Assembly (NCBI GenBank): GCA_024614665.1
Contig: GCA_024614665.1_4861.1
Length of the DNA stretch: 64,000 nt
Strand: one strand, 5' to 3'
Source: a phage
The notes below the pieces were generated by a model. It was not told where the DNA came from. It worked only from the letters and a program-made list of their open reading frames with translations, and searched no databases. The translations under genes and the position numbers were made by a program. This document shows, one piece after another, positions 3,258 through 46,420 of the stretch. How positions within the stretch are numbered: position 1 is the first letter of the stretch; the number at the start of each line of letters is the position of its first letter.

Positions 3258-3976
3258 TATTCTCCTCGCAACTGCGGTGGAATGTATTCACCTGTGCACA
3301 TTTCGCGGTGGGCTTCTAACATGCGCTCGAAGCCGTACGTACGCGCGACCAGGGCCAAATGATAGATGCGTGCCGTAGAATACGCTTCCTTCGCAGCATC
3401 AAAGCTAGCGTTATGCTCGTACGCTTCTTTGCCACGGGTCCAATGGTGCGCTTCTGCGTGCCAGTTAGGTTCCAGGCCAAACGCATATGCAATACGCTCT
3501 GCAGTCCGGTCAGAGTCCAATATAGAAAACTTGCGGTACTTGCCCGGCGGGATATCGCACTGCGCGAACGCGTTCATCAGAATTGGAGCATCGAAATCGG
3601 GACCGCGCATGGTGATAACCATTTTCACGTTGCCCAGATCATCCAACCATTTTTTGGCCGCCCACAGTGCTTCTGGCAGTGGCGTGGTCCCAGAAAACGC
3701 TTCAACACGTGCTTTCTCGCTCGGTGCGTATTCGGGGTCGCCTTTACCTTCCCAATAGCCGACCGTTTGTGGATCGATGTAGAAGATTTCTTTTGCTTTT
3801 GCATCGTTAGGGTCGATTTTGTGGTAACACGAACCGATCATTTTCATTGTCGGAACATCGAATGCCACGTTTGCCAACGTTAAGATGTAGGCATCTGGAC
3901 GTAAAGCCAGGGTCTCTAAGTCTGTACCAACAACCACGGTTGGTGTTAAAACAGGCAGAATTTTAGGATAGGTCAT
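3257..3976 (-). CDS. DEDDh-family 3'-5' exonuclease
   Basis: Exo I VVGTDLETL (DxE), Exo II GPDFDAPIL, Exo III HNASFDAAKEAY (H-x4-D); GGAGAG RBS. Confidence 0.65.
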   Translation of the reverse strand: MTYPKILPVLTPTVVVGTDLETLALRPDAYILTLANVAFDVPTMKMIGSCYHKIDPNDAKAKEIFYIDPQTVGYWEGKGDPEYAPSEKARVEAFSGTTPLPEALWAAKKWLDDLGNVKMVITMRGPDFDAPILMNAFAQCDIPPGKYRKFSILDSDRTAERIAYAFGLEPNWHAEAHHWTRGKEAYEHNASFDAAKEAYSTARIYHLALVARTYGFERMLEAHREMCTGEYIPPQLRGE

Positions 3977-4020
3977 TTCAACTCTCCACGAGATTATATA
4001 TCACACTATTAACTATTAAC

Positions 4021-4060
4021 GTAAAAAAGGAAATCCCTCTTACCCGAAGGTAAGAGGGGA
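4021..4060 (-). terminator. intrinsic terminator
   Basis: hairpin CCCTCTTACC-CGAA-GGTAAGAGGG followed by a T-run on the minus strand, downstream of 4065..4544. Confidence 0.6.
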
Positions 4061-4064
4061 ATTT

Positions 4065-4544
4065 TCATTGCACAAGGCAACTACTTCTGTGCCGTTCGTA
4101 GGCACGATTAAAAGACACTCTGTCTTCGCGATAGCCGCGAATGAGAGACTTAATCTGTCGTGACAAATCACGACTAATGTCTTGAGGGCTACGAGAACCA
4201 GGGTCGAGATATATCCCAGTGGGTATATCATGAAGAGTGGGGCGAATAAACTCTTCACAAAGCGGTGCGGCCATCGGGGTGCGCCACCCCTTAGCTTCTG
4301 CGTAATTGTTCAACGACTTAGCGTACAGATAAACGTAATAAGCATAAGCGTTCACATCCGCAACAAACATTTTCCCTGCCAGCTTTTTCGCCTCAGGACT
4401 GTTCCCACCGACATAAACTGGTGGGTGTTCTAAAGGACGAAAAGGCCAATCTCCGGTTGAGGAGTAATCTGGGTCTACGTGACGGATGACCCCAGGGCAT
4501 CCTGTCAACAATAGCACCAATATCGCCGCCAAAAATAACTTCAT
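4065..4544 (-). CDS. lipoprotein (possible o-spanin or exclusion lipoprotein)
   Basis: N-terminal MKLFLAAILVLLLTGC with lipobox LTGC; starts 10 nt after the preceding membrane-protein gene. Confidence 0.55.
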   Translation of the reverse strand: MKLFLAAILVLLLTGCPGVIRHVDPDYSSTGDWPFRPLEHPPVYVGGNSPEAKKLAGKMFVADVNAYAYYVYLYAKSLNNYAEAKGWRTPMAAPLCEEFIRPTLHDIPTGIYLDPGSRSPQDISRDLSRQIKSLIRGYREDRVSFNRAYERHRSSCLVQ

Positions 4545-4553
4545 GTATGCTCC

Positions 4554-5069
4554 TCATGGATTATTAAGCGTACTGATAATCTCCTGTCGGAAATCATTTG
4601 CCTCCTGCGACCCTACCGGGCGAGAAGCGGCCTGGTGTTTCTTGGCAGGTGGGCTAGACGGATTTAACGGTGCCGGCGGTGTTACCGGCTTGGGTTCTAC
4701 AGGCGGAACCGCGGCCCCAGTGCCTGTTCCTGTTGGAGATTTGGTACCATCATATGGCGGTCGAGAACCCAGGCACGTGAAGAGACGATCGTACAACTTA
4801 TTGTTCTCCACTTCGCCGTGATCGGACTTCTCTTTTAGCTCCTTATAGGATATCTCCAGATACTGAGTACGCGATTGAACGCTAACCAGTGTGTGGTATT
4901 GAACAATATAGGCATATGAGACAAATGCAGAGAACGCGATCAGTGCCACTATCACTAGTGTCACTATTTTCCCGGCTCGTGTTACTTTCTCCCCCTCGCC
5001 CGGTTTAAATGCTTCCCACAGTATCTGTAAGAATGGAAGCAGTTTGAAAACTGATGCTATCATGCTCAC
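4554..5069 (-). CDS. membrane protein with Pro-rich C-terminal region (possible i-spanin)
   Basis: hydrophobic segment IVTLVIVALIAFSAFVSYAYIV; Pro/Thr-rich tail PPVEPKPVTPPAPLNPSSPP; ORF track. Confidence 0.45.
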   Translation of the reverse strand: MSMIASVFKLLPFLQILWEAFKPGEGEKVTRAGKIVTLVIVALIAFSAFVSYAYIVQYHTLVSVQSRTQYLEISYKELKEKSDHGEVENNKLYDRLFTCLGSRPPYDGTKSPTGTGTGAAVPPVEPKPVTPPAPLNPSSPPAKKHQAASRPVGSQEANDFRQEIISTLNNP

Positions 5070-15628: not shown

Positions 15629-15679
15629 GTTTGCCTTCTAATGAGAAAGTATTAGTCGTTCATATCCAAAAGGTCATGC

Positions 15680-15713
15680 GTAAAAAAGAAGAAATGGAAC
15701 CCCGAAGGGTTCC
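15680..15713 (-). terminator. intrinsic terminator
   Basis: hairpin GGAACCC-CGAA-GGGTTCC with T-run on the minus strand after 15725..16351. Confidence 0.6.
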
Positions 15714-15724
15714 AGAGAGGAGAG

Positions 15725-16351
15725 TTATTGCGGAATAAACTTACGGTGTCCGAGTGATTCCCAAAAACTATCGGTGCGCTCTTTGGTTAATTCATACCAC
15801 GCACGCCCGGCATCAGAATCGACAACCTTTAACGTTTCAGTAAGCAGGAATTTGAACAGTTCAGCGCTACGACCGGGTGCTACACCGTCGAGATATATCG
15901 GAATTAAATAACCGGTTTTGATTTCTTCGTACGGTTGCGATTGGTGCTGACCAACAACCCAGGCGTCAGCCGCGCTACCGACCAAAGTGGTGTTTACAGT
16001 TAACTCATCAGAAATCCAGTTAACGGTATCAGCCATTATTGAATCGCCATTGACGTAGAAGAAAACTAAACGTTTAGGTTGCTCCACCGAACCGGCCAAA
16101 TCTAATGCAGTAGTTCCGGTGAAGATCGTATTATTGGGATTACGTTCTGCAATAGGTAGAGCAAACCACGCTTCGAGCTGTTCCCAGCTACGCGGCAGTG
16201 CTTCTTTAAACCACTTCACCAATCGCGGGTATTCCAGAAACCCTTCTACCTCTTCTTCCATCAGATTGATACGCAGTTTGGTATCCTGACGATTCGCTTT
16301 CTGACATGTCACCATGTCATCGATGAAACGAATCAGGGTAATTTCGTTCAT
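15725..16351 (-). CDS. hypothetical protein (208 aa)
   Basis: ORF track; followed by hairpin terminator. Confidence 0.6.
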   Translation of the reverse strand: MNEITLIRFIDDMVTCQKANRQDTKLRINLMEEEVEGFLEYPRLVKWFKEALPRSWEQLEAWFALPIAERNPNNTIFTGTTALDLAGSVEQPKRLVFFYVNGDSIMADTVNWISDELTVNTTLVGSAADAWVVGQHQSQPYEEIKTGYLIPIYLDGVAPGRSAELFKFLLTETLKVVDSDAGRAWYELTKERTDSFWESLGHRKFIPQ

Positions 16352-16365
16352 GTTTAATCCTTCTT

Positions 16366-16397
16366 CAACAAAAAAAGAAGGTAGCCCGTAGGCTACC
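16366..16397 (-). terminator. intrinsic terminator
   Basis: hairpin GGTAGCC-CGTA-GGCTACC with T-run on the minus strand after 16406..16906. Confidence 0.6.
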
Positions 16398-16405
16398 TCT
16401 CGTAT

Positions 16406-16906
16406 TTACAGCCCCATATGCATAAGGGAAATGATAGGGACTTTTCGGCCACGTATCATTGCATACGGTTCGTACATTTGTGCGTTAGTTTCGAATAACT
16501 CACAGGCCGGAATACGATCGCCGGTAGAGAGTTGTAAGACTTCGATTTGGTCGCCCCAGAAGTTATTCACTAATACGTGGTCGACAGTGTTGTCTTCACG
16601 ACCTTCAGGGGTTTTGCAATAAGTGGCGGCATCGTACCAACCTTTGCGGTATACTTCATAACCCGCGTGAAGCATCCGGTAGTACGGACGCAGTTGTGGG
16701 GCATTCAACGCAGCATCTAGCCACTCGCTGTGAATGCTGTTAATCAACACGGTCGCTTCTTCTGGCCACTCGCTGCGGTTTAGGGTTAACTCGCCTAACA
16801 GCTTTAACTTCCAGCCAGTGGAAAGAATAGCGCGGGTACGTTCTGGATTGACGTTCATCTGAGTAAAGAAAGTAGAACGAGTATCGTCAAGAATGTTCAT
16901 GTTCAT
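16406..16906 (-). CDS. hypothetical protein (about 166 aa)
   Basis: ORF track 16406..16972; start moved to ATG (MNMNIL...) with AAGGA RBS because upstream codons lie inside a terminator hairpin. Confidence 0.5.
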   Translation of the reverse strand: MNMNILDDTRSTFFTQMNVNPERTRAILSTGWKLKLLGELTLNRSEWPEEATVLINSIHSEWLDAALNAPQLRPYYRMLHAGYEVYRKGWYDAATYCKTPEGREDNTVDHVLVNNFWGDQIEVLQLSTGDRIPACELFETNAQMYEPYAMIRGRKVPIISLMHMGL

Positions 16907-16924
16907 TTGCTTAGTCCTTACGAG

Positions 16925-16977
16925 TAATAGTCGATTAAAAAGGACCCTGCGGCTATGTGTTGGGGATATCACCGCAG
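16925..16977 (-). terminator. intrinsic terminator
   Basis: stem CCCTGCGG / CCGCAGGG with long loop, then T-run on the minus strand, after 17036..17419. Confidence 0.45.
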
Positions 16978-17035
16978 GGCCAAAGTGAGATGGGTCGTCA
17001 TCTCACGTTATAACATCTGTCTGAAAACTTTTCGG

Positions 17036-17419
17036 TTACTGGTCGAGCGCTACTGAACCACGCACCACTCCTTGCTGTTCAATAACCAGGAGGCGTTGTT
17101 TGGTTTTCGTATTGTAAGCGAGCGACGCGCGAAGCGTCGGGTCGCACGTTATTGTCTCTACTGGCACAATCTCTTGTGCCTTTGAGTTCAACAAAAAGTA
17201 GTAACCTGCCGGACAAGTTTCCTCGCCCTTTGCGTGGACCAGGATGTACTCGTCGTGCCGGCTGACTTCTTCACATCTACCATCATCCCCAGTACAGACT
17301 TCGAACGAAGGCGGGTTGTACTGATACGGTGTGCCTGGTAGTAAATCTTCTACGCTAGTTGTAGCTGAAGCAGAAGCGGTAAAGAACACCGCCACGATAA
17401 TACCCATAAATCCACGCAT
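17036..17419 (-). CDS. small secreted protein (signal peptide, 4 Cys)
   Basis: MRGFMGIIVAVFFTASASA / TT cleavage-like site; ORF track. Confidence 0.6.
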   Translation of the reverse strand: MRGFMGIIVAVFFTASASATTSVEDLLPGTPYQYNPPSFEVCTGDDGRCEEVSRHDEYILVHAKGEETCPAGYYFLLNSKAQEIVPVETITCDPTLRASLAYNTKTKQRLLVIEQQGVVRGSVALDQ

Positions 17420-17432
17420 GTTGTTTCCTTAC

Positions 17433-17843
17433 TTAAAAGTCGAGTTTATTGATGCCTACGTTTTTCTTAATCGTAGGGTCATACATGATAACCGTCAGGG
17501 CATTATCACCTGGGTCGCGAGTAAACTCAGCAACGGCTTCACCACTGCAGGCCTGGTTATCATTATAGTTCATGGTTTCGGCTTGCCCGGTTGCCATGTT
17601 AATAACCCCGTATTCCGGGTCGCCACATGCGACGCCGCCCATCGTTTTCACTAACAGGTAACGGTTGTTATCGGACATCGCAACGATCTGGCAGCTACCG
17701 CCTTGTACGTCAGAGTTCTGGCACCAGAACTGGCCGCCGTATTCGTGATCGTTAACAACTTTTGGTAACTCGATACTTCCAGCACGAGCGAAGAAGCTAA
17801 TGGCCAGAGTAGCAAGTAAAACTGGTAATAAAAAATGTTTCAT
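17433..17843 (-). CDS. small secreted protein (signal peptide, Cys-containing)
   Basis: MKHFLLPVLLATLAISFFARA / GS; ORF track. Confidence 0.6.
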   Translation of the reverse strand: MKHFLLPVLLATLAISFFARAGSIELPKVVNDHEYGGQFWCQNSDVQGGSCQIVAMSDNNRYLLVKTMGGVACGDPEYGVINMATGQAETMNYNDNQACSGEAVAEFTRDPGDNALTVIMYDPTIKKNVGINKLDF

Positions 17844-17865: not shown

Positions 17866-18357
17866 TTATTCTGAATAGTCGATTGTTTTGATAGTTTCCA
17901 TACCGTAGTACATAGCGATGGAGGCCAGAGTTTTGGTATCCGGTCGCTGTACAAAACCGGCCCTGAAATCTTTGCTGCAAATTTTCTCCACTGATAGTTC
18001 ATCACGATTAGGGATAAGCCATAACGCGTCACCGTTGTGACGGTCGACTGCACCCCACCAACCACCTGGGCAATCTTTATCGCCCGGACGGTGTACGATA
18101 GCGACACGTCCGTTGAAGGATATGTCAACTACACGACACTGTTTCTTAAGCAGCTTACGCGCATTGCACCAGAACGGCTTATCATTAAGATTGATGGTGC
18201 GGGTATATGCTGGAATGCTGCCGTTAATACTGCCCTGGAACCCGCTGAATTCGTCAGCGCGTGCCTTAGAAATCCGTAGCCCAACAACAAGTGCCATCAA
18301 CAGCACAGTAAAAAGCACCACTTTGGCCAAGTGGCGATTAACGTTATTGCATTTCAT
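17866..18357 (-). CDS. small exported or membrane-anchored protein
   Basis: ORF track 17866..18402; start moved to MKCNNVNRHLAKVVLFTVLLMALVVGL with GGAG RBS; overlaps upstream gene stop by 14 nt. Confidence 0.5.
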   Translation of the reverse strand: MKCNNVNRHLAKVVLFTVLLMALVVGLRISKARADEFSGFQGSINGSIPAYTRTINLNDKPFWCNARKLLKKQCRVVDISFNGRVAIVHRPGDKDCPGGWWGAVDRHNGDALWLIPNRDELSVEKICSKDFRAGFVQRPDTKTLASIAMYYGMETIKTIDYSE

Positions 18358-18745
18358 TTTTAATATCTCCACGATTAAGGGTGATGCGACCGACGAGCAC
18401 ATCGTTGTGATAAAAACTCACAGCAACCAGATCTGGCAATTCCAACGGCGATACACTGACCGAGGTGACTTTTGGTTGATTGCACGATATGTCGATTAAT
18501 CGCTGATACATTTTCAATTTCTTATCAGCGATAACCAGCCCTGTGCAGTTCTTACCGTCCGTCAGTCTGTAGATTTGTAACTGTTCGACCTCACGCATCA
18601 GTTCCGGTTTTTCATTCGGTGCAATGGCATAATCCGAATCAGCTGATGTGTATTCAGTCACGTCTGGCTTATCGAAAGCATAAGTTGCTGCAATACCACA
18701 TGCGGCCAGAACTACTACTGCTTGTAAGAACTTCTTGATAGTCAT
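18344..18745 (-). CDS. lipoprotein
   Basis: MTIKKFLQAVVVLAACG with lipobox LAAC; ORF track. Confidence 0.6.
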   Translation of the reverse strand: MTIKKFLQAVVVLAACGIAATYAFDKPDVTEYTSADSDYAIAPNEKPELMREVEQLQIYRLTDGKNCTGLVIADKKLKMYQRLIDISCNQPKVTSVSVSPLELPDLVAVSFYHNDVLVGRITLNRGDIKNEMQ

Positions 18746-18800: not shown

Positions 18801-18850
18801 GTTGAGTTAATCTCTTAACTCTCACCTAGGTAATATATATCTGAGATATT

Positions 18851-22936: not shown

Positions 22937-23116
22937 GGTACTGCACTCCTCGTTAGGTTAAAAGTCAAGGTCAACTACAAAAAGGATGTCGGTATCCTAC
23001 GGATACCTCCGTTTATGTTCGCATCCAATACATAAACCCCCTTACCCCCGTACTCTCCTCGATTGTCAAACGATGAGATCGAAACGTAAAAAAGTGTAGT
23101 ATGAGAGGAGGGTGGT

Positions 23117-24049
23117 ATGAACAAATCTAAGTCAGGGTTGCACATCTTCTCGATAGGTATCGTCGCGGAAGATAAACCTCGTGGTGCCACTCGAGTTAAA
23201 GTCATCCCTATCGAAGTTAACTTTATTAATCCAACAGCTGTCGATGCAACAGAGACGCCTGTAGAGAAGCAACACAACAGTTTAAGTGGTACTGACAACC
23301 TTACTGTAAAGCAAGGTAATGCCATCACTGCAAAATGGATGAAGTCCAATAGCAACCGGGTTAACCCTCCGGATGTGAAAAAAGAAGACTATGTAAGAAT
23401 CTGGCGTATCGGTGAAACCGATATGTACTTCTGGGAAGATTTAAACAACAGTAACGTTAAGCGACTGGAAGATGGGGTATATGCCTGGTCTGCTGACCCA
23501 GTAAACCAGATGGCCGATGACCTCTCTAACGCCTACGTACTGAATATCTCCCCGATGGATGGTCACATTACCTTACGTACCAGTATGACCAACGGTGAGA
23601 AAAATGCGTATTTGCTCCAGCTGAATACCCGTGACGGACTTTGCCAGTTAGTGGATGACGAAGGGCGTAAGTTCTACCTCAATTCTCCGGAGGATGACTT
23701 AGGGTTTGAAAACGCCTGCCGGTCGAAGATTAATATCAATAAAGAGGACGCTTTCATTTATGCTAAACGTTCTATTAATCTCGAGACAAAGACGATTAAC
23801 GAGAAGTGCGAAACTCGCAACTCTACAGCGTCGAAAAACATGGCATGGACGACTGAAGACTGGAAGACCACATGCCCAACGAATCTATTTACCGGTAACC
23901 TGGAAGTAGGTAAGGATTTCCTCTATAACGGCAAGGGTGAGGGTAAGGGCACATTCACAGTTACCGAATCGGTTATCGGCGGCATCACCTTTACTCTTCA
24001 CGTACATACTGGCCATGGTCCGGGCAACGACACCAGTACACCTCACTAA
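23117..24049 (+). CDS. hypothetical protein (310 aa), possible virion spike or needle-like protein
   Basis: GAGGAGGG RBS; C-terminal GITFTLHVHTGHGPG (HxH-type motif); function not established. Confidence 0.6.
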   Translation: MNKSKSGLHIFSIGIVAEDKPRGATRVKVIPIEVNFINPTAVDATETPVEKQHNSLSGTDNLTVKQGNAITAKWMKSNSNRVNPPDVKKEDYVRIWRIGETDMYFWEDLNNSNVKRLEDGVYAWSADPVNQMADDLSNAYVLNISPMDGHITLRTSMTNGEKNAYLLQLNTRDGLCQLVDDEGRKFYLNSPEDDLGFENACRSKININKEDAFIYAKRSINLETKTINEKCETRNSTASKNMAWTTEDWKTTCPTNLFTGNLEVGKDFLYNGKGEGKGTFTVTESVIGGITFTLHVHTGHGPGNDTSTPH

Positions 24050-24209
24050 GTTATTTACGTGTGTGGGGTATAATGTGACAATAAACCCCTAACTGTAACG
24101 ATAACCCGAATCGCTTGTACACAGTTAGCCACTTTTTTCGCACAAAAGCCGGTTTATTGTCAACTAACTTACGAGTCGGGGCAGTTAATATGCCTCGTAG
24201 TACAAGTAG

Positions 24210-24236
24210 TTGAACATAGGGTTCTTCTGCTATCAT
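24210..24236 (+). promoter_or_regulatory. candidate sigma70-like promoter for the DUF1471 gene
   Basis: TTGAAC - 15 nt - TATCAT, about 20 nt upstream of the ATG at 24257; spacer is shorter than optimal. Confidence 0.3.
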
Positions 24237-24256
24237 TTGTTAATGGAGATAAGTAA

Positions 24257-24466
24257 ATGAGCATTCGTGAAATCACCGCAGGCAGCGACGTTTCTGGTCT
24301 GGTAGAAGCAGGCACCGTTCAGGTTTCTGGACTGAGCACCGTTACCGAAGTTACCGAAGCGCTGGCTAAAAAAGCCGAAGCTGAAGGCGGCGTAGCATTC
24401 AAAGTTACCGCTTGTGGCGGCAACAACAAAATGTTCGGCAACGCGATCTATTACGTAAACGCGTAA
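24257..24466 (+). CDS. DUF1471 (BhsA/YdgH/McbA-like) domain protein, 69 aa, no signal peptide
   Basis: GTVQVSGLSTVTEVTEALAKKAEAEGGVAFKVTACGGNNKMFGNAIYYV matches the DUF1471 pattern as I recall it; GGAG RBS; flanked by a strong terminator. Confidence 0.6.
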   Translation: MSIREITAGSDVSGLVEAGTVQVSGLSTVTEVTEALAKKAEAEGGVAFKVTACGGNNKMFGNAIYYVNA

Positions 24467-24480
24467 TCAGCCTGCAGGCA

Positions 24481-24537
24481 AAAAAAGATATAGGTACCCT
24501 ACTCCCAACGGGAGTAGGGTTTACCTTTTATTTTTTT
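24481..24537. terminator. bidirectional intrinsic terminator
   Basis: A-run, hairpin ACCCTACTCCC-AAC-GGGAGTAGGGT, long T-run; between convergent genes ending 24466 and 24528. Confidence 0.7.
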
Positions 24538-25790
24538 CTTGCTTTGTAGCGATGCATTTCAACAAACGGCTTACCCCAAGCCCCGAAAGGCCCGACGATT
24601 GCCTGCGCGTCGTTTACCAAATTCTGGTTATACCAACGTGCGTTCCCCAACAAAAAGTTTTCCCGGTCGAAGAATGTGGTATTGAAAACCCACTCCCCTT
24701 CTTCCCAGGTCGGCCAGTACCCTACACATTTACCAATACGGTTAAAGATAGGACCTAGCGTTTTCTTCCCATCTGGGTCAGTTGGGTCTTTTAAATAGAA
24801 CCGGCCCCAGATAGCGTTGTGGCTTATTCCGTGAATCTCTTTTTCGAGATACGGGTTGTCTATCGTAAAGATAAACGAGGATTCGTGCGTCAGCAACGCT
24901 TTTAACGTTTCTGAGTTACGAATACGTTGAACGGACGTAGGCGTACTTAAATCACCTACACCGATGGCGTCCCAATCGTAATAGCGACGGGTTTCCAATA
25001 CAATCTTCGCCACGCTAAGGTTTGGCAGACTCAGCATAATCGCACGGTCGCTGAAATAGCCCTGCGGTGGCAACCAATGCAGAATACCCCCGATGACGAA
25101 CCCAACGGTTTTCCCTGTAATGGAATCGGGTAAGGTCAACATTAACGAAGAATAGTAATCTCGCGTAGTATCGAGTTTGTTCATCGTTAAACCGGATATG
25201 GGGTAGGTCTTTACTTTACCGATGTTTGCCATCACCAGACAGCCGATGTCAGGTGTATTGGCACGCCGCACGATGTTACCAGCGCCAGTTAAGCGAACAC
25301 CCACTGGGTCAGATTGGTGAGGTACCCATTGACCGTTGATGTTGTACAGTACCCCGGTACGGTATTTCTCTTTCCACTCATCGTCGCAGACTACAACAAC
25401 GTCATGTGCATCATCAGGATTGAAGTCCTGAGTGTAATGGTACCCAGGAGGGCATAGGTGCGTTTCTACGGGCACATCTGCATTAATAGACTGGTAGTGT
25501 GCCTCAACGAATTCGAGCTTCGGTAGGCCCTTCCCAAGCGTTGGAATCGCGATTCCTGACTTGGTGTTTAACCAATCTTGCAACGTGTCCGTACGGTTTT
25601 GTAAATCTGCCAGGTGATACTGGCTATAGAAGGTATATTCAGCACCTAGTGCTTCTAGTCCTACTTCGAAAAAGTGGTAGTTAGCACAAAGGGTATTTAA
25701 GGGCTGCGTGACATCGATGGTTCCCCAAGTTCGGGTGTCTCGAGAGAAGCCAAAAGCGCTGTCGGCCCGCACTTGATAAGCAGTAGTCAC
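24528..25790 (-). CDS. hypothetical protein (420 aa)
   Basis: ORF track; GTG start with GAGGAAA RBS. Confidence 0.55.
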   Translation of the reverse strand: MTTAYQVRADSAFGFSRDTRTWGTIDVTQPLNTLCANYHFFEVGLEALGAEYTFYSQYHLADLQNRTDTLQDWLNTKSGIAIPTLGKGLPKLEFVEAHYQSINADVPVETHLCPPGYHYTQDFNPDDAHDVVVVCDDEWKEKYRTGVLYNINGQWVPHQSDPVGVRLTGAGNIVRRANTPDIGCLVMANIGKVKTYPISGLTMNKLDTTRDYYSSLMLTLPDSITGKTVGFVIGGILHWLPPQGYFSDRAIMLSLPNLSVAKIVLETRRYYDWDAIGVGDLSTPTSVQRIRNSETLKALLTHESSFIFTIDNPYLEKEIHGISHNAIWGRFYLKDPTDPDGKKTLGPIFNRIGKCVGYWPTWEEGEWVFNTTFFDRENFLLGNARWYNQNLVNDAQAIVGPFGAWGKPFVEMHRYKARKK

Positions 25791-40246: not shown

Positions 40247-40253
40247 CTTGTTT

Positions 40254-40300
40254 ACGAGCCGGACTATGTTTATGGACATAGTCCGCTCGTTCTACTTTTT
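40254..40300 (+). terminator. intrinsic terminator between tail fibre module and Cys-rich peptide genes
   Basis: long imperfect hairpin ACGAGCCGGACTATG...CATAGTCCGCTCGT followed by TCTACTTTTT. Confidence 0.6.
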
Positions 40301-46293: not shown

Positions 46294-46420
46294 GGTTGTT
46301 TCCTTATAGTAGGTTTGTGGTGCATACTAAATCGTTCTAAAAAAAATACATAGTGGGCTTAATATGACAGTAAAGTTGACTGTTAAACGAGAAAATTATT
46401 TACCACTGAAAGGATACCTT

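Follow-up and report, generated by a model that had tools for sequence, protein, structure and literature searches.

Can a DUF1471 protein, a member of a bacterial family of small periplasmic proteins associated with stress and biofilms, serve a phage from a gene that lacks any export signal? The question is raised by a 64,000-nucleotide stretch of phage DNA (NCBI GenBank assembly GCA_024614665.1, contig GCA_024614665.1_4861.1), called the window here at its full length, in which a coding sequence (CDS) for a 69-amino-acid DUF1471 protein without a signal peptide lies at positions 24257 to 24466 on the plus strand. Between positions 23000 and 26000 the window is 98.9% identical in DNA to the Salmonella jumbo phage SPN3US (genus Seoulvirus), in reverse orientation, and the predicted product is 100% identical to SPN3US gp172 (SPN3US_0172, ACQ60_gp094), the name used below. 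The family assignment is prior annotation and not new: RefSeq already calls ACQ60_gp094 a "DUF1471 domain-containing protein," homologs in the Erwinia phages Wellington, Kwan, and Stratton and in Salmonella phage SPAsTU are named "putative multiple stress resistance protein BhsA," and PHROG 8068 (phrog_8068) matches gp172 with an E value of 3e-33. A literature search returned no paper connecting SPN3US or jumbo phages with DUF1471 or BhsA, and no description of the function, expression level, absent signal peptide, or allele exchange of gp172. What is new relative to the annotation is that gp172 is a signal-less, phage-fixed, and exchangeable DUF1471 variant with very high predicted expression.

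A mature DUF1471 domain without an export signal

A preliminary description of the window had assigned the protein to the DUF1471 family from its sequence pattern, and profile search bore this out. Pfam PF07338 (YdgH_BhsA-like) matched gp172 with 43.5 bits (gathering score, 27; E = 3.3e-11), aligning residues 16 to 66 with positions 2 to 54 of the 55-position profile. Profile search also met two very long proteins (2848 and 2764 amino acids) with many short repeat matches. An AlphaFold2 model built from a 58-sequence alignment, with a predicted local distance difference test score of 85, had the order strand-strand-helix-strand-strand, and five of the six top-scoring Protein Data Bank (PDB) entries for it were DUF1471 domains (SrfN, 2JNA/2MA8; YdgH, 4EVU/2M2J). 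YahO (2NOC/2MA4) also matched, lower in the list, and the query TM-scores (TMq) of the DUF1471 matches ranged from 0.65 to 0.74. A sequence search of the PDB gave weak DUF1471 matches (E = 0.17 to 0.35), such that the fold search was needed. The top six Foldseek matches also included RcsF (2Y1B; TMq of 0.79), an outer-membrane stress-sensor lipoprotein whose likeness to the DUF1471 fold was pointed out in the structure paper on the family. RcsF is similar to gp172 in fold, but the two are only about 10% identical, and gp172 has no lipobox and none of the functional disulfides of RcsF.

Like the bacterial members of the DUF1471/YhcN family (BhsA/YcfR, McbA/YbiM, YbiJ, YhcN, YahO, SrfN, and YdgH/SssB), gp172 has the PF07338 domain and an alpha+beta fold, and its length is that of their mature domain. 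Unlike them, it is phage encoded, without a signal and hence presumably cytoplasmic, and at most 53% identical to any of them (41 to 53%). Orthology to a named paralog (BhsA, McbA, YbiJ, YhcN, or YahO) was not indicated, as no NCBIfam cutoff was reached; the best scores were 41 bits against a cutoff of 110 for McbA and 39 against 90 for BhsA.

The DUF1471 family has been described as specific to Enterobacteriaceae and usually signal bearing. No hydrophobic N-terminal core was found in gp172, the highest 10-residue hydropathy within the first 30 amino acids being 1.24 compared with a mean of 2.38 in 53 bacterial homologs. The NCBIfam models for McbA, BhsA, YbiJ, YhcN, and YahO aligned to gp172 over their mature parts only, and all phage homologs are 66 to 78 amino acids long and begin at the mature N terminus. 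Moreover, the codon immediately 5′ of the gp172 ATG (24254 to 24256) is an in-frame TAA, and thus no longer N terminus is possible. The absence of a signal peptide, noted in the preliminary description, therefore holds. We conclude that gp172 is the mature DUF1471 (YdgH/BhsA/McbA) domain alone, without an export signal.

Codon usage, selection, and allele exchange

Codon usage set the gene apart from nearly all others. The fraction of optimal codons (Fop) was computed with the standard Escherichia coli optimal-codon set and calibrated on proteins of known abundance. The window gene had an Fop of 0.836, the highest of 66 window ORFs (open reading frames; mean 0.514, standard deviation 0.078), and this value was reached in 0 of 20000 simulations, the composition-based expectation being 0.539 ± 0.059. 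Within SPN3US, gp172 (0.806) was second among approximately 276 ORFs, after the major capsid protein (0.829) and ahead of gp53 (0.801), chimallin (0.793), gp54 (0.776), the tail tube protein (0.721), and gp141 (0.709), and all of these other proteins are known from published work to be high copy. Among 66 ORFs of 120 amino acids or fewer, the next-best Fop after that of gp172 was only 0.695. Base composition was not deviant, with a GC content of 0.51 compared with 0.48. High Fop was also seen in the homologs from seven other phages (0.65 to 0.82, compared with 0.50 to 0.60 for flanking genes), despite saturation of synonymous sites between the phage homologs, which argues that the bias is maintained by selection in the phages and is not inherited from the host. 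We conclude that Fop tracks known protein abundance well in SPN3US, and we infer from codon usage that gp172 is made at levels near those of the major capsid and nuclear-shell proteins.

The same ranking drew attention to other SPN3US genes. The homolog of chimallin, the nuclear-shell protein, is RefSeq gp244 and is encoded at SPN3US positions 15768 to 17621, with the fourth-highest Fop in the genome. ORFs at 224924 to 225412 (Fop of 0.764) and 187636 to 187935 (0.695) were flagged by Fop as candidates for abundant proteins.

The protein sequence is also constrained. The ratio of nonsynonymous to synonymous substitution rates was 0.03 to 0.14 in four close pairs of genes and 0.27 and 0.42 in the remaining two, and the protein was 100% identical in at least 22 full-length records of the Seoulvirus type. 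We conclude that the gene is under purifying selection.

Identities of gp172 homologs were out of step with those of the neighboring products, the spike protein gp173 and the tail protein gp171. Caitlin and Machina share 46% identity in the DUF1471 protein, 80% in the spike, and 72% in gp171, and the window and phiEaH2 share 47%, 65%, and 81%, respectively. The order is reversed between Machina and phiEaH2 (83% in the DUF1471 protein, 64% in the spike, and 62% in gp171) and between the window and Caitlin (78%, 62%, and 65%). Two allele classes account for the pattern, class A (SPN3US type) and class B (phiEaH2 type), and their distribution conflicts with the phylogeny of the flanking genes over a discordant segment that is roughly the size of the CDS. 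The conflict indicates that the CDS alone was exchanged by recombination between jumbo-phage lineages.

The slot occupied by gene 172 and its transcription signals

Searches with tblastn found the gene in 65 phage records, all of them jumbo phages with Enterobacterales hosts, and a scan of IMG/VR found it at 17 loci, every one on a contig of 107 to 248 kb. A search of BFVD gave only two significant fold matches, both from the same phage clade, and no other viral protein with this fold. At nine loci, representing the five genera Seoulvirus, Erskinevirus, Machinavirus, Wellingtonvirus, and Derbicusvirus, a gene for a DUF1471 protein of 66 to 78 amino acids without a signal peptide occupied the same slot, namely, after the spike gene and facing a convergent gp171 homolog. 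CR5 encodes a homolog too, as detected by tblastn, in a locus context outside the nine examined. The slot is an empty 320-bp gap in the Vibrio relative pVp-JHP1101 and is empty in phiKZ, where gp129 and gp130 are adjacent. The Wellingtonvirus slot holds an extra 52-amino-acid ORF after the spike gene (positions 3570 to 3728 of locus L004) and a second DUF1471-fold gene (Wellington gp189; L004 positions 4242 to 4802 and L010 positions 3961 to 4527), the 186-amino-acid product of which has an N-terminal domain, a long acidic proline-rich tail, and a BFVD match with a TMq of 0.81. Because neither the Vibrio relative nor phiKZ has a gene in the slot, which contains extra genes in Wellingtonvirus and is subject to CDS exchange, we conclude that the slot behaves like an accessory insertion hot spot.

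The closest bacterial relatives of gp172 were all from Enterobacterales (Salmonella, Phytobacter plus Kluyvera, Serratia, Yersinia, Tatumella, and Raoultella) at 41 to 53% identity, in keeping with the earlier description of the gene as host-like. The phage allele types share approximately 40 to 66% identity and are as distant from one another as from the bacterial members, which fits single and repeated captures equally well. The distribution and the bacterial relatives are most simply read as an old capture from a host, followed by loss of the signal peptide.

One set of records departed from the pattern. In the Salmonella phages SPFM5, 6, 7, 9, 10, 12, 14, and 15 (GenBank LR535903 to LR535913), the gene was apparently scrambled, with blocks of approximately 20 amino acids (60 nucleotides) in reversed order, as if the lines of a FASTA file had been reordered, giving rise to bogus 61-amino-acid "hypothetical proteins" (P0009 to P0011). 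The scrambling is probably an artifact of the sequence files and not biology.

Upstream of gene 172 on the plus strand, positions 23117 to 24049 encode the gp173 homolog (phrog_3216). Homology to phiKZ gp164 (PDB 6ORJ; E = 3.4e-27) and a C terminus matching the puncturing device gp45 of phage Mu (E = 0.002 to 0.007) identify gp173 as the central spike, the puncturing protein of the baseplate. Downstream and convergent, positions 24528 to 25790 on the minus strand encode the homolog of gp171, a member of the phiKZ gp130 family (phrog_3337; tblastn) that published work on SPN3US found to be essential and tail associated. Published mass spectrometry placed gp173 and gp171 in the tail and classed gp174, gp176, and gp178 as nonvirion proteins; the divergent nonvirion block begins one gene further left than gp173. 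The location "between structural and early genes" proposed at the outset was therefore imprecise, as both direct neighbors are tail proteins by mass spectrometry, and gene 172 is one gene inside the tail block and not on the block boundary. Two further ORFs between the spike gene and the CDS, one of 61 amino acids on the minus strand (24051 to 24236) and one of 32 amino acids on the plus strand (24115 to 24213), were rejected, being unconserved in relatives that differ by indels that are not multiples of three. PADLOC defense models gave zero matches.

Gene 172 forms a unit of approximately 340 nucleotides that comprises a predicted 65-nucleotide leader, a ribosome-binding site, the CDS, and a conserved bidirectional terminator. 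Direct reading of the sequence confirmed the ribosome-binding site that had been reported, a GGAG on the plus strand at 24245 to 24248, 8 nucleotides before the ATG. The intrinsic terminator, which is shared with gp171 and serves both strands, spans positions 24480 to 24537 and consists of an A-run, an 11-bp stem (24496 to 24520) with a 3-nucleotide loop, and a T-run. Its hairpin had a folding z score of approximately −5.9 on both strands and is kept in seven phages, with compensatory changes at six of nine pairs. The gene is thus a self-contained, insulated single-gene unit with a strong bidirectional terminator, as first described, if its promoter is considered separately.

The promoter originally proposed, a sigma-70-like TTGAAC-15-TATCAT on the plus strand at 24210 to 24236 (hexamers at 24210 to 24215 and 24231 to 24236), was judged nonfunctional. 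Its 15-nucleotide spacer failed a consensus scan, which found 0 sites between 23000 and 26000 where 3.9 were expected, and neither hexamer was conserved in relatives. Phages of the phiKZ type transcribe with their own virion and nonvirion RNA polymerases, independently of host RNA polymerase.

A candidate promoter of phage type, TTAC-N16-TATG, is located at 24169 to 24192 on the plus strand, with a predicted start at G24192 that would give the 65-nucleotide leader. TATG (usually TATGC) was present 40 to 66 nucleotides 5′ of the ATG at all nine homologous loci, and (T)TTAC preceded it at eight of the nine, by 15 to 17 nucleotides (8 in Phobos); EarlPhillipIV has no TTAC. TATG at the transcription start is an element of phiKZ late promoters. 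Upstream intergenic regions of SPN3US contained 12 sense-strand matches to TTAC-N14-17-TATG where 1.08 were expected (approximately 11-fold), a count reached in 0 of 2000 shuffles, and one of the sites precedes the gene of the abundant head protein gp160. The broader TTAC-N14-17-TRTG occurred five times in the window against an expectation of 0.52, and neither TTTTTTAC alone nor TATG alone was enriched. Other window matches to TTAC-N14-17-TATG included those at 40252 to 40274 on the plus strand and at 46349 to 46373 and 15661 to 15683 on the minus strand. The TTAC-N14-17-TATG motif is a candidate middle or late promoter of the phage nonvirion RNA polymerase, a concrete one for a phage group without defined middle and late promoters, and gp172 would be transcribed by a phage polymerase, as a middle- or late-class gene, from near G24192. 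An AT-rich motif, CAGATATATATTACCTAGG, that resembles the early-promoter element described for these phages is found before some other genes and is absent upstream of gp172.

A weak promoter-like sequence, TTAC-N15-TGTG, lies just after the spike stop codon (24055 to 24077, plus strand) and may have a similar function. The arrangement TTAC-N15-T(A/G)TG-AC was present in six of seven aligned phages, phiEaH2 having TATA there, and the TGTG variant occurred four times in upstream regions of SPN3US compared with an expected 0.82 (P = 0.01).

Farther downstream, a conserved noncoding block, CGCTTG...GCCACTTTTTTCGC, spans positions 24113 to 24141 on the plus strand. Its 12-nucleotide core (24128 to 24139), GCCACTTTTTTC, comes after both the spike stop codon and CGCTTG and before the candidate DUF1471 promoter and was found in 15 of 18 loci examined, with one substitution in Caitlin, amid flanking sequence that diverges. 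The 12-mer was rejected as a general promoter or terminator: the 240-kb SPN3US genome contains it only once, even with 1 mismatch allowed, and near-matches in the window were at the chance level. A possible function is that of a regulatory site specific to this locus. The block showed no consensus RNA structure. Folding of the leader and intergenic RNA was likewise unremarkable (z scores of 0.17 and −0.57), and RNAalifold yielded only the upstream terminator hairpin of the relatives. Rfam matches between 23900 and 24700 were at chance level, the best being to a microRNA model (26 bits against a threshold of 85) that is explained by the terminator hairpin.

At eight of the nine loci, TATG directly follows a GC-rich hairpin and T-run that end the spike transcript. 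This spike-to-promoter terminator, kept at the eight other loci, has been lost in SPN3US-type phages (window positions 24142 to 24168), in which transcription may continue from the spike gene into gene 172.

Possible roles of gp172

In the account that we favor, an ancestor shared by SPN3US, phiEaH2, Machina, Wellington, Derbicus, and CR5 would have acquired its DUF1471 gene from an Enterobacterales host, and the gene would since have stayed in one slot, the convergent gap between gp173 and gp171. We infer that the gene is read by a phage RNA polymerase from TTAC-N16-TATG and not by the host sigma-70 polymerase, that its product accumulates to capsid and nuclear-shell levels, as codon usage suggests, and that gp172 stays soluble in the cytoplasm, to exit the cell only at lysis and to remain in purified virions at most in traces. 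In the least certain step, gp172 would act through its DUF1471 fold as an accessory factor toward the host or the environment, and it would be neither a core structural part nor a stress protein at work in the infected cell's periplasm. Our preferred but tentative reading is thus that gp172 is a cytoplasmic accessory protein of high abundance, with a stoichiometric action on a partner that is either specific to the host or environmental.

The role first suggested was that of a moron transcribed by sigma-70 polymerase, encoding a BhsA/YdgH-like stress or biofilm protein that alters the envelope physiology of the infected host. DUF1471 membership, the self-contained unit with its terminator, and the clade-specific insertion all agree with such a role, and in several respects gene 172 resembles phage morons such as bor and lom of lambda and the morons of HK97: it is extra relative to related phages, has its own promoter-like and terminator signals, probably derives from a host, and sits between tail genes. 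Unlike those morons, it is found in a lytic jumbo phage, is probably read by a phage polymerase, does not stand out in base composition, and is present in all examined members of a clade of several genera. The word moron therefore fits the accessory type of slot, the terminator, and the restriction to one clade, but not a recent or sporadic acquisition, as the gene is ancient, present at every examined locus and in 65 of the 65 matching phage records. SPN3US-like phages are treated in published papers as lytic and nucleus forming, and in a lytic phage a moron has no lysogen to benefit in the classical way. Location also weighs against the suggestion: with no export signal, and with a stop codon that precludes one upstream, gp172 cannot enter the infected cell's periplasm, where the family acts, and alteration of host envelope or stress physiology in the manner of BhsA is unlikely. 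Sub-consensus and unconserved sigma-70 hexamers, in phages independent of host RNA polymerase, and scores under every NCBIfam ortholog cutoff point the same way. The suggestion is largely refuted on localization, and as a whole we consider it highly improbable.

Superinfection exclusion offers a related precedent. Llp of T5 and Cor of phi80 and N15 are superinfection-exclusion lipoproteins that are encoded beside receptor-binding genes and have the infected cell's envelope as their site of action. Gene 172 is similarly small, host-envelope related, and organized as its own unit adjoining tail-tip genes, but its product has no signal, unlike the lipoproteins. Elsewhere in the window, an ORF of 133 amino acids on the minus strand (18344 to 18745) that starts MTIKKFLQAVVVLAACG has a signal peptide and a lipobox (LAAC) and is preceded on that strand by the early-promoter-like CAGATATATATTACCTAGG at 18825 to 18843. 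Its product is a candidate envelope lipoprotein, for example, one that might exclude superinfecting phages.

Evidence from virions bears on the two remaining alternatives and on the cytoplasmic accessory role. A 2017 study of virions purified on a single CsCl gradient detected gp172 through 6 spectra and 4 unique peptides that covered 81% of its sequence, making it the smallest virion protein reported, and found it absent from the head-protein mutant 47(am1). A 2023 study of dual-gradient virions, with a more sensitive instrument, identified 102 phage proteins, the smallest of 10.5 kDa, and gp172 was unlisted between gp171 and gp173. An abundant soluble protein would be expected to leave just such traces, lost on further purification. 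Several points nevertheless count against an abundant cytoplasmic accessory protein: the 4 unique peptides detected in CsCl-purified virions in 2017 and their loss in the head-protein mutant; the 2023 gels, which were run only approximately 1 cm and from which a 7-kDa protein could have escaped detection; the long evolutionary stay of the gene inside the tail/baseplate module, which also fits a morphogenetic role; and codon optimization itself, an indirect proxy for abundance that was read here from only 67 codons.

Some of these points would be expected if the DUF1471 fold had been co-opted for a purely phage-internal job, with gp172 as a helper in tail or baseplate morphogenesis (a chaperone or scaffold for the spike, gp171, or the fiber-like proteins gp168 to gp170) or as a minor, loosely bound virion component. 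The gene lies between two tail genes verified by mass spectrometry at every locus examined, the neighbor gp171 is essential and tail associated, gp172 was seen in single-gradient virions and was missing from 47(am1), and its promoter motif is of the kind also found before the gene of gp160, an abundant head protein. A helper would be expected to be cotranscribed with its neighbors, however, and gene 172 is transcriptionally insulated; its allele class follows neither the spike nor the gp171 alleles, and both phiKZ and the Vibrio relative build a homologous baseplate without a DUF1471 protein. Capsid-level codon optimization is ill fitting for a trace virion protein, and the deeper 2023 virion proteome did not detect gp172. 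On balance we regard a morphogenetic helper as unlikely, though a serious contender. The same codon optimization would suit a protein that decorates the virion in many salt-labile copies, or one that is released in bulk at lysis to bind glycans or envelopes outside the cell, whether on Enterobacterales debris, neighboring cells, exopolysaccharide, or mucus and mucosal glycans. This idea agrees with the detection of gp172 as traces in single-gradient CsCl virions but not in dual-gradient ones, the family normally acts outside the cytoplasm, and in a lytic phage, lysis makes a signal peptide unnecessary. SrfN binds sulfated polysaccharides and forms a salt-sensitive dimer, but its binding residues are not conserved across the family, according to the DUF1471 structure paper. 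Moreover, no report was found of a matching density on SPN3US capsids, and the gene is in the tail module and not in the head module. Decoration or extracellular binding thus seems to us quite improbable. If it were true, a periplasmic host domain would have been repurposed, without its signal peptide, as an extracellular phage factor, the allele classes of which are swapped between cocirculating jumbo phages.

DUF1471 proteins are abundant and stress responsive in Enterobacterales. Among them, gp172 is a natural variant that lacks an export signal and is under purifying selection across a clade of nucleus-forming jumbo phages, and its role is directly testable because amber-mutant genetics and established proteomics are available in SPN3US. 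Should the predicted abundance hold, gp172 would count among the major proteins made by SPN3US-like phages during infection. Its binding partner could also point to the target of the DUF1471 fold in bacteria.

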